This document shows, piece by piece, positions 6,392 to 64,000 of a stretch of 64,000 bases of DNA (its first letter is position 1; each line of letters opens with the position of its first letter). The stretch comes from Octopus vulgaris (taxonomy: Eukaryota), in assembly GCA_951406725.2 (NCBI GenBank), contig OX597840.1:1612001-1676000 (forward strand), given 5' to 3'. Under the pieces are notes generated by a model. That model was given only the letters and a program-made list of their open reading frames with translations. It did no database searches and was not told the DNA's origin. A program made the translations under genes and the position numbers.

Positions 6392-6428
<37 letters not shown>

Positions 6429-6429
6429 T

Positions 6430-6495
<66 letters not shown>

Positions 6496-6672
6496 TGATA
6501 TAGAACCGTAAGTTACATTTCCTGAAGACGAGATAAGGTAAAGATGTATATGAATAAGGTAAAGATGTACTACATATATTTCCAAGTTAGTTTAAACAGG
6601 TTTTACGTAACAAAGAAGTGGAAAATGTATTCGGCTTATCTCGTCTTCAGGCAATGTAACTTACAGTTTTAA

Positions 6673-6745
<73 letters not shown>
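6392..6745. repeat. Fold-back: ~37 bp inverted arms flanked by inverted (GATA)n/(TATC)n tracts
   Basis: 6501-6537 tagaaccgtaagttacatttcctgaagacgagataag pairs with 6635-6671 cttatctcgtcttcaggcaatgtaacttacagtttta. Confidence 0.8.
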
Positions 6746-6793
6746 CCTACCTAAGTATCTATCTGCATTTATATATATGTATATATATAAGTA

Positions 6794-15878: not shown

Positions 15879-16212
15879 TCATCATCATTATCACCATCAT
15901 CATCATGATCATGATCATATAATTTGCAGAACTATACACAGGACGTCCGCTTGAGATTGAACATGCATATAGTTCTACCGATTACATTTGGGATTATATT
16001 TCAAACCTCTTCGTTTTGGCACGCCAAAATACCGGAAATAAATCTACAGAAAATATATCTCTGCAGTGAATTTTGCTGGTTAGAGAACATGGTTATATAA
16101 GTTTAAATAATAAAGGTGGAAATTTGAATAATATTTCGATTAACATCAATTTAAAACCAGTGGTCTAGCATATTGAAAAATCTGAAGATTCATAAAAAAT
16201 ATATTACATACA

Positions 16213-16393
16213 TATAAGAGGGATGACCAATAACTTGACATCCATTATGCTAGAAGTAGACCCCCTCTGGTCTTACCACTAAGAAAAGATTGTTCTGAAG
16301 AAAATTCATCAAACGCCAGAATGTAAGCAAGCAAGAAAATGAAAAGCTACTTCTAGCATAATGGATATCCACTTAGTAGTCATCCCTCTTATA
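16213..16393. repeat. Imperfect fold-back, ~47 bp arms
   Basis: tataagagggatgacc...tccattatgctagaagtag pairs with ctacttctagcataatgga...gtcatccctcttata. Confidence 0.8.
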
Positions 16394-16769
16394 CATATAT
16401 AGGTATATATAAATATATATATATATTTGTGTGTGTATACTTATATATATATTTGCATTTATATAAGTATACACATAGAATATATATAATTTCATAGGTT
16501 ATAAGAATATAAGCTTTAATATACGTATAACTATTATGTATTAGTTGTATATGTGCATACATAAATAGATATGATAGTATAAGGGATATATATATATATA
16601 TATATACGGATATATGTAAGTATATATATACACACACATAAAAAAATATATATACATACATATATATATATAGATACATAGATTGATAGATATATAGACA
16701 GACATACTGGAAAAGGATTGGTAGATAAATAGATAGATAGATGCACATATATATACATATATACATAAA

Positions 16770-30279: not shown

Positions 30280-30468
30280 TGGTGTACCGCTGGCGATTTT
30301 TTGCCTCTGTCTTCCCTTCTCTGGATCTTTCCTTCTCCTATGTTTCCGACCAAGAGCTCCGCTCAAAACGTTAAACCCTCCTTCTTCCCTTCTTTCATGA
30401 GCGTCCAATAATACTTTATTTGTTCCACGTCCTCGCGTTGTTGTGTTTTCTTGTTTCGAATAAATTTA
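30280..30468 (+). mobile_element. Family D-related pLTR-like repeat with decayed hammerhead-like motif
   Basis: gtttccgaccaagagctccgctcaaaacgttaaac...tgagcgtccaataatac...ttgtt has the same layout as the reverse complement of family D. Confidence 0.5.
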
Positions 30469-30478
30469 TATATATATA

Positions 30479-30694
30479 CTTTATTTAAAGCAGCAGAAAA
30501 TTCAACAAAATCTGTTACTCTGAGTTTCTCGTTGCCGTTCATCAGACAGTTTTTGCTACAATGGAACCGATATATCAATTCAATCCGGATTGAATTGATA
30601 TATCGGTTCCATTCTAGCAAAAACTGTCTGATGAACGGCAACGAGAAACTCAGAGTAACAGATTTTGTTGAATTTTCTGCTGCTTTAAATAAAG
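30479..30694. repeat. 216 bp spacerless palindrome (108 bp arms, one mismatch)
   Basis: Centre caatcc|ggattg at 30586/30587; arms run from ctttatttaaagcagcag to ctgctgctttaaataaag. Confidence 0.95.
30619..30666 (+). ncRNA. Type I hammerhead ribozyme motif (mirror copy on minus strand, 30507-30554)
   Basis: aaaaactgt-CTGATGA-a-cg-gcaa-cg-a-GAAA-ctc-a-ga-GTA-acagatttt: stem I ctgt/acag, intact core, weak stem II, GUA cleavage triplet. Confidence 0.7.
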
Positions 30695-30765
30695 CATATT
30701 ACTCTACCACTGGTATTTGAGTACACTTTTTTCCACCTTGTTTCACATTTATGTGTTTACTCCGG

Positions 30766-43002: not shown

Positions 43003-43292
43003 CTATCCTTAAATCCTTAACAACATGTTTCTGCCCGAAGGCTGCGGCTATGCTGGGGCACCACCGTTGAATGAGCTACACTTGTATGTGAAAGCACCTC
43101 TGATACGTGGCACTTGATCAACAAGGGAGTTCGATGCCGCTTCCCGCATCTGTGTTTCCTGCCGAGAGGTAGGTTCATCTGGGACCCCTGACAAGAAAAG
43201 ATTCAGTTTAGTTTTATCGAAACTCACATCCGCACCATGCACGTCTCTCAGGCATTTAGGAAGGATGTTGAAGAGCTGTGGTCCTCTGAAAC
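43003..43292 (-). mobile_element. CR1-superfamily-like LINE 3' end (shares tail with SINE B)
   Basis: SFRGPQLFNILPKCLRD...KLNLFLSGVPDEP...REAASNSLVDQ, then ggtggtgccccagcatagccgcag...gaaacatgt and a (ttaaggat)n tail. Confidence 0.75.
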
Positions 43293-43675
43293 TTATTTTT
43301 TTAATAGGTCTATTCCTAGGTCTAATTTTATTATTCACATTATTAGAATTATAAAAAAAAAATAGACCAAACAAATATAAAATAGCCTTAAAAATAGACC
43401 TCAAAAAATAATATGGTTCTTCCCACCTTGGCGTTTGGAGTTCTAGATACGTTTAATACACGTATTAAAAGCATTCAAAATATCAATACTTGGTTTGAGT
43501 TCATTCATATATTTTATGATATTATGTCTTATACAAACTATCCACTCCTAAATCTACACATGATATAACAACGATATTTGGATTTGTTTGATCGAAGCGG
43601 ATCGATTCGGAAATCCTGGCAACCAGCGTCGTTTCTCAGCATAATAAAATCTATATATACGTACATGGATACAAA

Positions 43676-44199: not shown

Positions 44200-44580
44200 C
44201 TCTTGCTTGCGTGACATGGCACAGTTCTTTTACCAGCGATAGTATTTTCAACAGCCACGGAGTTATATACAGGGAGGGTGTTCATGCAAAGAGTTCAGGC
44301 CATATCTGGTCAAGAGAGACTTTGGACCGAGCGGTCGTCGGCATCTTCACTATCGCGTCTGGCAGTTTATTCCACGGATTCGCAACCCGGACGGAGAAAG
44401 CCCCTCTCCTTCGATTGAGATGAAATCGTCGCAGATAGAGCTTTTCGGAGTGACCCCGCAGCCTACGCTCTGGAGTAGGAGTGAAGAACAACTCTTTCGA
44501 GAGGTTACACTTCCCACTTATGATGTTGTGAGCGAGATTGAGATCACTACGGCGTCGTCGTTTTTCTAGAGAATAAAGGT
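44200..44580 (-). mobile_element. CR1-type LINE ORF2 C-terminus
   Basis: LYSLEKRRRRSDL...RLRGHSEKL...RRGAFSVRVANPWNKLP, a typical CR1 C-terminal motif. Confidence 0.85.
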
Positions 44581-44760
44581 CGACCACAACTTCCTTCAGG
44601 CACGTGATGTAGGACTCCACTTTGAGTCTGAGGCCGTGTGAGAAGATGGATGGCGGCATAACGTCACCGTCACTCGTGGTCACTCCAAAGACCATGATGT
44701 CAACTGGATGTTTGATTTTTATCATCCTCAGTACGTTTCCTCAGATTGCAATATTCTCCG
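44581..44760 (-). mobile_element. Tc1/mariner (maT/DD37D-like) transposase fragment
   Basis: KIKHPVDIMVFGVTTSDGDVMPPSIFSHGLRLKVESYITCLKEVV. Confidence 0.75.
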
Positions 44761-45233
44761 GTTGTCACAGAAACACTCTGAAATGTTCGTATTGAAGCTT
44801 CCAGCGCTAATGCCATACAATACTAAATGTCCTACCCAAATTGTCCTACCCAAATTTCTGGTGATATTTTTCTCCCAGAGGGTTTCCAGCTGATCCTACA
44901 ATACTGTGTGGTCGACAAAATCAGAAAGGAACAATGCGTATAAGCGAAATTGAAAATAGAAAATTTACCCATCGCTTATATATATATATATGAGGGTATG
45001 AGTAAGTATCTCATTTATTTCTTTGCCACAATTATCACTGACGAAGGGAGGGTTCTTACGAACTAATCCTGAAATCGGTCCGATATGGTAATAATGGAAT
45101 TTTTTAGAAATTTCTGGCGGCTTTTTTTCGAGTAGCATGCGTATTGTGAAAAATTACATGGTAATGGACAATATGTCCAATTTTCGGCATATTTGGCATT
45201 AGAATTTTTTTCGTTTGCCCTTATTTATAAGTT

Positions 45234-47849: not shown

Positions 47850-48260
47850 TTTTAATCTACATGTTTGTTATAATCACTTGGTGAGACACACCCTGAGTCT
47901 TAGGGCGAGTGAAGGATAAGAGATGTTATAGTTTGGCTCAAAACTTGAAGTGAGGCAGTTGCAGGGACAGAAGCGATATAACTTTCTGTAATATAACAGG
48001 CATTTAAATTGATAGGCTTTTTCTGAGGTTGTGGGAAGTACTTTTCAGCATAATCTTTTTAGGTTTCTCTGAGATATGGTTCTCCTGGTATGTTATCTAG
48101 ATATTTCTTACATCGACATTTAGTCATATCTCGGACACCTACAATAACAGGTACAGTTATTGCTTTAAGATACCACATTTTTTGTATTTCAATTTCCAGG
48201 TCCTTATAATTACTTAAGTTGTCAAATTCCTTTACAGATATATATTTTATCAGCGGGAAC
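47850..48260 (-). mobile_element. R4/Dong-type LINE 3' end (RLE domain), running into a (TAA)n field
   Basis: VPADK...SVKEFDNLSNYKDLEIEIQKMWYLKAITVPVIVGV...IPGEP...HNLRKSLSI*. Confidence 0.8.
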
Positions 48261-48299
48261 CCTCTTTTTAAAGACCGCTTCGTTTTATTTTTCTCTTGT

Positions 48300-48920
48300 A
48301 AATTCTGAGAACGGACAGCAGCCGGCTGTGAGACGTTACACAGGAATTCTTTGCACTGCGCACATTATAAGATTTGATACTTGATTGTTAATTATCATGG
48401 AAGACATTCTACTTCAAAGTATCAATTTCAATATCCTAGCTGTCCCCAGCAGAGGAGTAATTTGGGGTGAGGAGAAATTATATGCTAGTACCCTGAAAAT
48501 ATAAGGCCTAGAGCCTAGTCAAAAGAAATTATAGTTCTATCTGTACGTCTCAGTACAATAGTCGATGGAGATGATCACGGATGGAAAGAAATTTGATCTT
48601 GGACCACTAGATCAGAGGAGTAATTTGGGGCTTGCTCTACTCTCAAATCAATTCCCATTTCTCGGACATATTTCTCGAACGCGATTGTTAGTGTTCCGAG
48701 TGCCCCCTACAACGACTGGAATGACAGACACTTTCCTCATAGTCCACATGCTTGCGATGCCGTCTTTTAACAGTATGTATATTTAAATTTTTATACTAGT
48801 TTCTCACTAATATGTGCATCCCCAAGTATTGCAGTATCTATAATTTTGGTTACTTTATTTCCTTCAAAAGCTTCGTAGCGTGGTCTTTTCTCTCCTCCTG
48901 GATGGCGTGGGAAAAAATAA
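48300..48920 (-). mobile_element. Second R4/Dong-type LINE RLE remnant, interrupted by a 145 bp insertion
   Basis: KIIDTAILGDAHI...IASMWTMRKVSVIPVVVGALGTLTIAFEKY...EQAQ / LLGTARILKLIL, split at the duplicated cagaggagtaatttgggg. Confidence 0.75.
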
Positions 48921-53031: not shown

Positions 53032-53306
53032 AAAAAACAGAGCACAAAGGATGTCGCGGTACACATGTTTCGAGCTTTATAAAACAACCTATTCTTACAT
53101 CAATGTATAATCGACATAACAGATAGATTAAAGCCCTCTTCAGCCGCACCTTTCATAATGTGCTAGTTGTCTTTGGTGTAGCAATTGCATGCGGCTGCAG
53201 AGGGCTTTAAACTATGTGTTATGTCGATTATACATTGATGTAAGAATAAGTTGTTTTATAAAGCTCGAAACATGTGTACCGCGACATCCTTCGTGTTCTG
53301 TTTTTT
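53032..53306. repeat. Fold-back element, 117 bp arms, 41 bp spacer
   Basis: 53032-53148 is the reverse complement of 53190-53306 with a few mismatches. Confidence 0.95.
53056..53147 (-). ncRNA. Type I hammerhead ribozyme motif with enlarged stem II
   Basis: gcgg-CTGAAGA-gggcttta-[49 nt]-taaagctc-GAAA-catgt-GTA-ccgc; the plus-strand twin (53191-53282) has a mutated core CTGCAGA. Confidence 0.8.
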
Positions 53307-53790: not shown

Positions 53791-53896
53791 CTAACTGATA
53801 AGGGTGAGAAAATTGGATACTAATTTAATAGTACATCCATTTAACACCAAGTGGCCCAGTGCACAAAAAAACCTGGATTATGACAAAATTTTATAC

Positions 53897-54402
53897 ATAA
53901 ATATAAGAGAGTGGTCACTAAGTGGCTCACTCTGGCACTAGAAATAGATCCGATAGGTTTCAGCCACAAAATAAATGTTTCCAATGAAAGTCAGCACGAC
54001 TGTTAGCTCAAACGAACAGGACAAAGAAAAATAACAAAAATACAGATTATTTTGGGACAATTGTTTCGCTATTAATGAATTGAATGTAATTTTACTCACA
54101 GTAATTCACTTGTAGCTCATCGTTATGGTAAAATCTGGCATGCGATTTAGTATATTGTATTTTAGATGGTTTTGGCTGATGAGCTACAAGTGAATTACTG
54201 TGAGTAAAATTACATTCAATTCATTAATAGCGAAACAATTGTCCCAAAATAATCTGTATTTTTGTTATTTTTATTTGCCCTGTTCGTTTGAGCTAACAGT
54301 CGTGCTGACTTTCATTGGAAACATTTATTTTGTGGCTGAAACCTATCGGATCTATTTCTAGTGCCAGAGTGAGCCACTTAGTGACCACTCTCTTATATTT
54401 AT
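53897..54402. repeat. Fold-back element, 225 bp arms, 56 bp spacer
   Basis: 53897-54121 is the reverse complement of 54178-54402 with about 2 mismatches. Confidence 0.95.
54170..54249 (+). ncRNA. Type I hammerhead ribozyme motif, canonical core
   Basis: ttttgg-CTGATGA-gcta-[41 nt]-tagc-GAAA-caatt-GTC-ccaaaa: 6 bp stem I, 4 bp stem II base, palindromic stem III (acaattgt), predicted cleavage after C54243. Confidence 0.88.
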
Positions 54403-54625
54403 ATATATATATATATACATCTGAAGTATCGCCGTTGAAGCAGCAGAAAAAGTGGATATTATTGCCATCATTATTACAAGGCGGAAGAAGTTGTTGAAGG
54501 CTTTTTCTTGACAACTTTTCCCACCCTCTAAGGGTAACAATATTCAATTTCTTGTTTGTATCGTAGGCTACACTTCCGCTGCTTCTCTAAAATGTTTATG
54601 GTTGTTTATATAAATACGTAGTTTT

Positions 54626-62999: not shown

Positions 63000-64000
63000 T
63001 GTCGCTAAGACTGACGAAAATCCACTAAGACGGACGAAATGCCACTAAGACTGACGAAATACCGCTAAGACTGACGAAATGCCGCTAAGACTGACGAAAT
63101 ACCCCTAAGACTGACGAAATACCGCTAAGACTGACGAAATGCCGCTAAGACTGACGAAATGCCGCTAAGACTGACGAAATACCGCTAAGACTGACGAAAT
63201 GCCGCTAAGACTGACGAAATACCCCTAAGACTGACGAAATGCCGCTAAGACTGACGAAATGCCGCTAAGACTGACGAAATACCGCTAAGACTGACGAAAT
63301 ACCGCTAAGACTGACGAAATGCCGCTAAGACTGACGAAATGCCGCTAAGACTGACGAAATGCCGCTAAGACTGACGAAATGCCGCTAAGACTGACGAAAT
63401 GCCGCTAAGACTGACGAAATGCCGCTAAAACTGACGAAATGCCGCTAAGACTGACGAAATTCCGCTAAGACTGACGAAATACCGCTAAGACTGACGAAAT
63501 GCCGCTAAGACTGACGAAATGCCGCTAAGACTGACGAAATACCGCTAAGACTGACGAAATGCCGCTAAGACTGACGAAATGCCGCTAAAACTGACAAAAT
63601 GCCGCTAAGACGGACGGAATGCCGCTAAGACTGACGAAATGCCGCTAAGACTGACGAAATACCGCTAAGACTGACGAAATGCCGCTAAGACTGACGAAAT
63701 GCCGCTAAGACTGACGAAATGCCGCCAAGACTGACAAAATGCCGCTAAGACTGACGAAATACCACTAAGACTGACGAAATGCCGCTAACTGAGACTGACG
63801 AAATGCCGCTAAGACTGACAAAATGCCGCTAAGACTGACGAAATACCGCTAAGACTGACGAAATGCCGCTAAGACTGACGAAATGCCGCTAAGACTGACG
63901 AAATGCCGCTAAGACTGACGAAATACCGCTAAGACTGACGAAATGTCGCTAAGACTGACGAAATGACGCTAAGAATGACGAAATACCGCTAAGACTGACG
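63000..64000. repeat. 20 bp satellite, ~50 copies, runs off the window end
   Basis: Unit (g/a)ccgctaagactgacgaaat, head-to-tail with no spacers. Confidence 0.98.

Follow-up and report, generated by a model that had tools for sequence, protein, structure and literature searches.

Among the repeats of an Octopus vulgaris chromosome segment, a hammerhead ribozyme motif lies in one arm of a long inverted repeat, and the locus raises the question of what kind of element left the pair behind and whether the ribozyme could act where it now stands. The locus spans 53899-54400 of the window, by which we mean the whole 64,000-nt stretch of contig OX597840.1 that was analysed. The window is AT-rich, dense in (TA)n, other microsatellites and short interspersed repeats, and has no convincing gene over its 64 kb. 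Some of its repeats may be related to octopus SINEs, and the short minus-strand frames at 43048-43452, 44282-44740 and 48059-48364 may be remnants of the reverse transcriptase or endonuclease ends of LINEs; Pfam gives no match for these frames. The answer that we consider probable is that a complete type I hammerhead sits in the terminal part of a very abundant repeat, that the head-to-head pair arose through reverse transcription by a Penelope-like element (PLE), and that this copy of the ribozyme is, as predicted from folding, inactive.

Sequence reading and a script both bear out the original prediction of a complete canonical type I hammerhead at 54170-54249, in which the CUGANGA core, GAAA and UH lie where three helices meet, helix I being the open one. 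Its parts are as follows.

54163-54175, plus strand: 5' strand of stem I in full, with 4-5 distal base pairs, one mismatch and 7 proximal base pairs (folding)
54170-54175, plus strand: 5' strand of stem I, minimal 6-bp part (sequence reading)
54176-54182, plus strand: catalytic core, C3 to A9 (sequence reading)
54183-54231, plus strand: stem II of 4 bp (54183-54186 with 54228-54231) and its insert (54187-54227)
54232-54243, plus strand: GAAA (54232-54235), the eight bases of stem III (54235-54242) and C17 (54243), after which cleavage is predicted
54244-54249, plus strand: 3' strand of stem I, minimal part (sequence reading)
54244-54256, plus strand: 3' strand of stem I in full (folding)

A type I descriptor (stem I of at least 5 bp, CUGANGA, stem II of at least 4 bp, GAAA, stem III and UH), written after the motif had been seen, finds three matches in the window and one in total across 200 dinucleotide shuffles, and the hammerhead is therefore not a product of chance. 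The 6 bp originally given for stem I are present, but the stem is predicted to be longer, with 7 bp, a 1x1 mismatch and a further 4-5 bp (54163-54175/54244-54256), so that its extended form reaches about 12 bp. Stem III had been described as a palindrome preceding GUC; the octamer is self-complementary, with a computed self-duplex energy of −6.4 kcal/mol, but the palindrome already includes the G and U of GUC as its final two bases. As a monomer, stem III consists of 2 bp and a tetraloop, and it reaches 8 bp only as a dimer. The 41-nt insert of stem II folds into a 2x2 internal loop, an 8-bp helix, an internal loop and a 5-bp hairpin; stem II and insert together have a folding energy of −12.1 kcal/mol (z −3.38), which none of 200 shuffles equals. 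Rfam returns no match at gathering score in the window, the hammerhead motifs at 45.0 kb and 53.0 kb being likewise below it, and none of its 16 sub-threshold matches at 53800-54500 is to a hammerhead model; the long insert probably explains the miss of 54170-54249. Plant microRNA matches in the same interval were rejected, since they lie far below gathering score and reflect the long hairpin only.

The fold-back that holds this motif is made up of these features.

53892-53898, no strand: 7-mer that may be the left copy of a target-site duplication, repeated at 54414-54420
53899-54121, minus strand: left arm, an inverted 5'-truncated copy of the element's end, antisense to the ribozyme in a plus-strand transcript
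54119-54121, plus strand: 3-nt microhomology between the left arm's end and the family's own upstream sequence
54122-54177, plus strand: unpaired 56-nt spacer, the extra 5' part of the right copy, including the 5' strand of stem I and C3U4, and covered by family contigs
54178-54400, plus strand: right arm, a sense copy of the element's 3' end, with the same base at its outer end as the left arm
54401-54420, no strand: 13-nt (AT)n run and, at 54414-54420, the 7-mer again as putative right copy of the duplication

The two inverted arms are nearly identical, as had been noted, but their length is 223 bp (230 bp with the flanking TA) and not 225 bp. They differ at two positions, 54273 and 54278, and are separated by the 56-nt spacer. 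A young insertion, as first proposed, is probably the right reading of two differences in 223 bp; repair between the arms could also preserve their likeness. The 7-mer of the possible target-site duplication is common, with 214 occurrences on both strands of the window, where it ends 50 of the 139 (TA)n runs, and its recurrence here may be due to chance; target-site duplications of PLE insertions are variable. The outer ends of the two arms correspond to one and the same element base, 225 nt from the start of the hammerhead core, so the pair is head-to-head, and the 53899-54400 locus has no one-sided tail. The hammerhead is indeed complete in one arm only. The left arm stops at 54121, opposite G5, which leaves the minus-strand copy without C3U4 and the 5' strand of stem I, and the left copy is therefore unable to form the ribozyme. 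A minus-strand ribozyme that borrows C3U4 from the spacer was considered and rejected, the needed bases being absent.

Twenty of the 24 public runs listed contain the stretch or part of it, and four hold at least half of its words; runs with half or more come from three organisms, and a fourth organism stands at 0.41. Contigs of four runs (240, 505, 64 and 44 contigs, all figures being among the matches listed) were aligned to 54092-54620. The 44-contig run, which may be RNA, shows presence at the family level and not strand, ends or this locus. Across 54385-54427, an (AT)n run, the contigs are interrupted. The highest contig depths are 519,861, 655,415, 31,631 and 10,865 in the four runs, as against 0-281 in the right flank, and the summed depth over the ribozyme 3' half exceeds that of the right flank by three to four orders of magnitude, neither figure being a copy number. 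The family is a very abundant repeat, present in runs of several organisms. An exact 22-nt core motif has no match in metagenome, viral and prokaryote contig collections.

These contigs also separate what belongs to the family from what belongs to this insertion. In all four runs contigs align from 54119 onwards and share a common upstream loose end (7, 6, 3 and 2 contigs among those listed); no contig among those listed covers 54092-54109, and no joints are found among them in any of the four. Since the contigs at 54119 run into common non-inverted upstream sequence, the fold-back junction belongs to the insertion and not to the family, and the same shared sequence identifies 54119-54121 as a 3-nt microhomology. 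Both arms carry family-minority states at 54202 and 54316 (among the changes listed), so the arms derive from one subfamily or from one RNA. Over the last 70 nt (54326-54400) depth drops about 50- to 100-fold relative to the ribozyme; this end may be subfamily-specific, common to several families, or an optional tail. Some contigs join the element's end in this interval to different upstream sequence.

Variation within the family was compared with the predicted structure. Among the family loose ends listed, core position 7 is A, G or C besides U, and the other six core bases are kept. Pairing, whether Watson-Crick or G-U, survives each of the six placeable stem changes (54164, 54186, 54190, 54193, 54194 and 54202), as judged against the partner base of the window and not against the partner contig by contig. 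Stem covariation, which had been put forward as a check, is represented by six one-sided changes that all keep their pairs, but no two-sided compensatory change is among those listed. Listed substitutions fall at 0 of 39 positions of the minimal ribozyme and 18 of 224 elsewhere (Fisher p 0.08, not significant); for all paired positions the counts are 3 of 75 against 15 of 188 (p 0.29). Fossil A-to-I editing was rejected as a source of the A>G stem variants, there being no A>G excess among the listed changes (one place per DNA run).

The fold-back is most likely an ordinary head-to-head stump of a Penelope-like insertion, a layout that has already been described. PLE insertions often include an inverted, 5'-truncated copy beside the pLTR, mostly head-to-head and with an optional tail of 30-40 bp (PMC3846280, PMC8557442), and opposite-strand hammerhead pairs 100-700 bp apart are reported near truncated PLEs (PMC4209133). 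The octopus locus has an inverted, 5'-truncated terminal copy in head-to-head arrangement and a hammerhead in the terminal repeat near the 3' end, and its AT-rich, (TA)n target is occupied by a member of a dispersed multicopy family. The purified Poseidon PLE protein nicks AT-rich DNA and begins synthesis on both strands at one shared internal position; it inserts uncut RNA, so that ribozyme cleavage is not required, and the Poseidon hammerhead cleaves only with the protein (PMC11167929).

We infer a comparable course of events here. A PLE endonuclease would have nicked the AT-rich DNA on both strands, and reverse transcription would have started on each side at a single position near the 3' end of the element's RNA, which would account for the shared base at both outer ends. 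Neither cDNA would have been completed: synthesis of one would have ended opposite the core's G5, that of the other about 57 nt further, and the two would have been joined via the 3-nt microhomology; for the inverted copy, self-priming on an antisense template is a published model that could apply instead. Since both cDNAs pass C17 (by 66 and more than 120 nt), their templates would have been uncut or re-ligated RNAs. Cleavage after C17 probably takes place in the source elements, most efficiently when two hammerheads dimerise through stem III, and the long stem II probably does no more than swap loop 2 for an internal loop.

Some features fit this course less closely, among them the inner junction, which has a spacer in contrast to the palindrome described for many PLE junctions, and the geometry of helices I and II. 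In canonical animal type I motifs helix I has 6 bp and helix II 4 bp, and helix III is short and palindromic (PMC4209133); this 6-bp/4-bp form is tied more often to retrozymes than to minimal PLE motifs (PMC4209133, PMC7229834), so that it would count against a PLE source. In the Pfam scan, which took the 100 ORFs of at least 55 aa among the 141 complexity-filtered ORFs of the window, reverse transcriptase and GIY-YIG matches occur in 0 of 100, the five weak sub-threshold matches (in four ORFs) belonging to neither family; nor is a gene of either kind linked to the family in the window ORFs or in the short family contigs.

The source element would probably be an autonomous PLE, and a retrozyme-like derivative is an unlikely one. 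Retrozymes are tandem, non-coding relatives of PLEs with repeats of 170-400 nt and circular RNA (PMC7229834, bioRxiv 10.64898/2026.07.22.740005). Under the retrozyme explanation, which we regard as doubtful, the locus is an inverted monomer copied by PLE proteins from the RNA of a non-coding head-to-tail repeat of a non-LTR retrozyme family; the route of insertion is that of the PLE reading, and only the source element differs. The 6-bp/4-bp geometry together with a stem III of 2 bp and tetraloop is typical of animal retrozymes (PMC4209133, PMC7229834), the family is very abundant, and retrozymes are reported to derive from PLE pLTRs and often to occur as monomers (bioRxiv 10.64898/2026.07.22.740005); a circular template would also fit copying past C17. 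Set against this, the window has no tandem copy, and no joint leading from the 3' part back to the 5' part is listed in any of the four runs; short contigs, or a monomer longer than 280 nt, would hide such a joint.

The PLE reading is also helped by comparison within the window, where unrelated sequences repeat the layout in at least two further hammerhead-centred, (TA)n-flanked fold-backs. The features concerned, with two that are decayed or isolated, are listed here.

16199-16410, no strand: decayed fold-back in TA-rich DNA, with a degenerate core in the spacer
30474-30699, no strand: palindrome without spacer, 98% perfect, with a short hammerhead in each arm
45031-45092, plus strand: lone type I hammerhead-like motif with a stem I of 7 bp, a stem III of 4 bp with a 3-nt loop, and an AUA triplet
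53032-53306, no strand: hammerhead fold-back of an unrelated family, with 117-bp arms, a 41-nt spacer and a hammerhead at the inner end of each arm

The fold-back at 53032-53306 has an intact minus-strand motif at 53055-53148, whose stem II hairpin totals about 75 nt (z −3.0) and whose stem III is self-complementary if G-U pairs are counted; its plus-strand hammerhead has A6 changed to C. This family lies 900 bp away from the main locus and has a stem II extension of about 60 nt, similar to the 41-nt insert, and on the right side only the fold-back is extended by about 50 nt, like a PLE tail. In the palindrome at 30474-30699, stems I and III of the hammerheads fit the pattern tabulated for Hydra-2_aMil, and an extension of about 65 nt precedes (TA)n on one side only, again like a PLE tail; it is likely to be the end of a Hydra-clade PLE. 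Elements of that clade prefer (TA)n as target, and their hammerheads, with a palindromic stem III, lie some 100-200 nt from the 3' end (PMC8557442 supplement). To the left of this palindrome, a possible decayed minimal-hammerhead end of another repeat is seen by eye at 30300-30460. The decayed fold-back at 16199-16410 has outer ends similar to the final 40-45 nt of the main element, with 75.6% identity across 45 nt (E 0.03). The motif at 45031-45092 lies outside any fold-back, with a predicted active-fold cost of about 8 kcal/mol. Elsewhere, a fold-back at 6398-6776 stands between (GATA)n and (TATC)n and has a CUGAAGA core in each arm, pointing inwards, opposite to the other fold-backs. A long tandem array at about 63000-64000, whose 20-bp unit contains CTGACGA and GAAA, floods loose hammerhead scans.

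A fold-back or MITE-like DNA transposon, moving as one 500-bp unit with the hammerhead in its terminal inverted repeats by chance, would share the near-perfect long inverted repeats, the TA-rich target and the high copy number of the locus. It is nevertheless very improbable: the family contigs lack the fold-back junction by which membership of such a class would be recognised and run from 54119 into other shared sequence in all four runs, and the unrelated fold-backs of the window all hold their hammerhead at the inner end.

Whether the ribozyme could work depends on its surroundings. The original prediction named this motif the best candidate for an active ribozyme in the window; excised, it does have the lowest predicted active-fold cost of the four complete motifs, but in place the claim is not supported. 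The excised cost is 3.5 kcal/mol over the ensemble, compared with 5.3, 5.5 and 8.3 kcal/mol for the three other motifs, and 2.5 kcal/mol with stem III open for a dimer, these and all folding energies given here being nearest-neighbour estimates that ignore tertiary contacts and proteins. This lowest cost makes an in vitro cleavage assay reasonable, and cleavage may well appear in it. A plus-strand transcript that enters from the left yields the antisense arm before the ribozyme, and with the left arm included the active fold costs about 95 kcal/mol; if no more than 30 nt of the arm are present, the cost is about 30 kcal/mol. Pairing with the inverted arm is thus predicted to keep the ribozyme at this locus inactive; by the same calculations a promoter or transcript start inside the spacer would be the sole way to free the motif in place, and under the PLE reading the ribozyme at 54170-54249 is a passenger. 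The earlier statement that such motifs cleave as dimers is compatible with stem III but too strict, since a published motif with 2 bp and a tetraloop is 22% cleaved in 1 h as a monomer, and cleaves much better as a dimer (PMC7229834). A second hammerhead copy, head-to-tail and able to form the dimer, is absent from the window.

The same arrangement could be taken for a switch used by the host, in which the antisense arm blocks the ribozyme until another start site, splicing or duplex editing frees the motif. The truncation does place C3U4 and stem I outside the duplex, and read-through of 53899-54400 would give a 223-bp double-stranded RNA. Against such a role, for which we see very little probability, the locus is a young repeat insertion in repeat-dense DNA with no gene found nearby, its inner junction is spanned by no contig in four runs, and truncation points vary between the fold-backs of the window. 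Least probable of all is an assembly or library artefact such as a chimeric read: the inner junction is unspanned by contigs even in the best-matching run, but the arms differ at two bases, the two flanks are of different sequence, the microhomology at the junction is defined by the family, and the same layout recurs in several unrelated fold-backs.

Read as a PLE stump, the locus itself carries little weight, being one among very many retroelement stumps with a known layout. Its junction, on that reading, records reverse transcription through the cleavage site on both sides, which matches the in vitro insertion of uncut RNA by a PLE protein, and an uncut template bears on the open question of what purpose PLE hammerheads serve. 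Only the long stem II, found here in two unrelated families, deserves a further look; it departs modestly from the usual form and has been seen before. In the supplement to PMC8557442, loop 2 of the Hydra elements listed has 3-10 nt and that of two plant PLE-X motifs about 29 and 35 nt, and the plant motifs provide the precedent for a long loop 2. The family supplies a natural hammerhead whose stem II is long and structured, a motif suited to probing substitutes for the contact between loops 1 and 2. A bolder proposal, which we rate as conceivable but rather unlikely, is that this is an undescribed abundant animal retroelement family in which a conserved 41-nt double hairpin replaces loop 2 as a working part. 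The PLE protein would then dock on the double hairpin, or the hairpin would bring helices I and II into contact in a new way, and head-to-head stumps would be a genome-wide source of long double-stranded RNA; the similar extension of about 60 nt in the unrelated family 900 bp away suggests that long-stem-II hammerheads may be a design of the whole lineage.

Our search of the literature on hammerheads, Penelope elements and retrozymes in octopus or other cephalopods found no report on this family; Repbase and Dfam lay outside it and may catalogue the family. Literature on long stem II hammerhead variants likewise gave no report of the family, and the supplements of PMC4209133, PMC7229834 and the retrozyme preprint may hold it or similar long-stem motifs. 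Three short motifs from the window have no match in the supplement to PMC8557442, in which line breaks could hide one.

Compared with known systems, the locus shares features with three. With dimer-acting hammerheads (newt satellite 2, ASBVd; PMC6155905, PMC3088659) it has in common a palindromic stem III and a loop able to pair between copies; unlike them, it has an antisense copy nearby and no second sense copy. Animal non-LTR retrozymes (coral, mussel, axolotl HHR_Amex2; PMC7229834) resemble it in their canonical type I geometry, in a stem III of 2 bp and tetraloop, and in being non-coding and very abundant, but the octopus locus is not head-to-tail and has a long hairpin in place of loop 2. 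PLE units differ from it in that this copy lacks both an ORF and a one-sided tail of 30-40 bp; it departs from the Hydra PLEs listed in the 41 extra nt in stem II of 54170-54249. It agrees with the units of endonuclease-positive PLEs (Penelope/Poseidon, Neptune, Hydra) in the head-to-head inverted ends, one of them shorter at its 5' side (PMC3846280, PMC8557442), and with PLE units also in having, close to the 3' end, a type I hammerhead whose stem III is palindromic, and in the AT-rich, (TA)n target and the microhomology at the inner junction.
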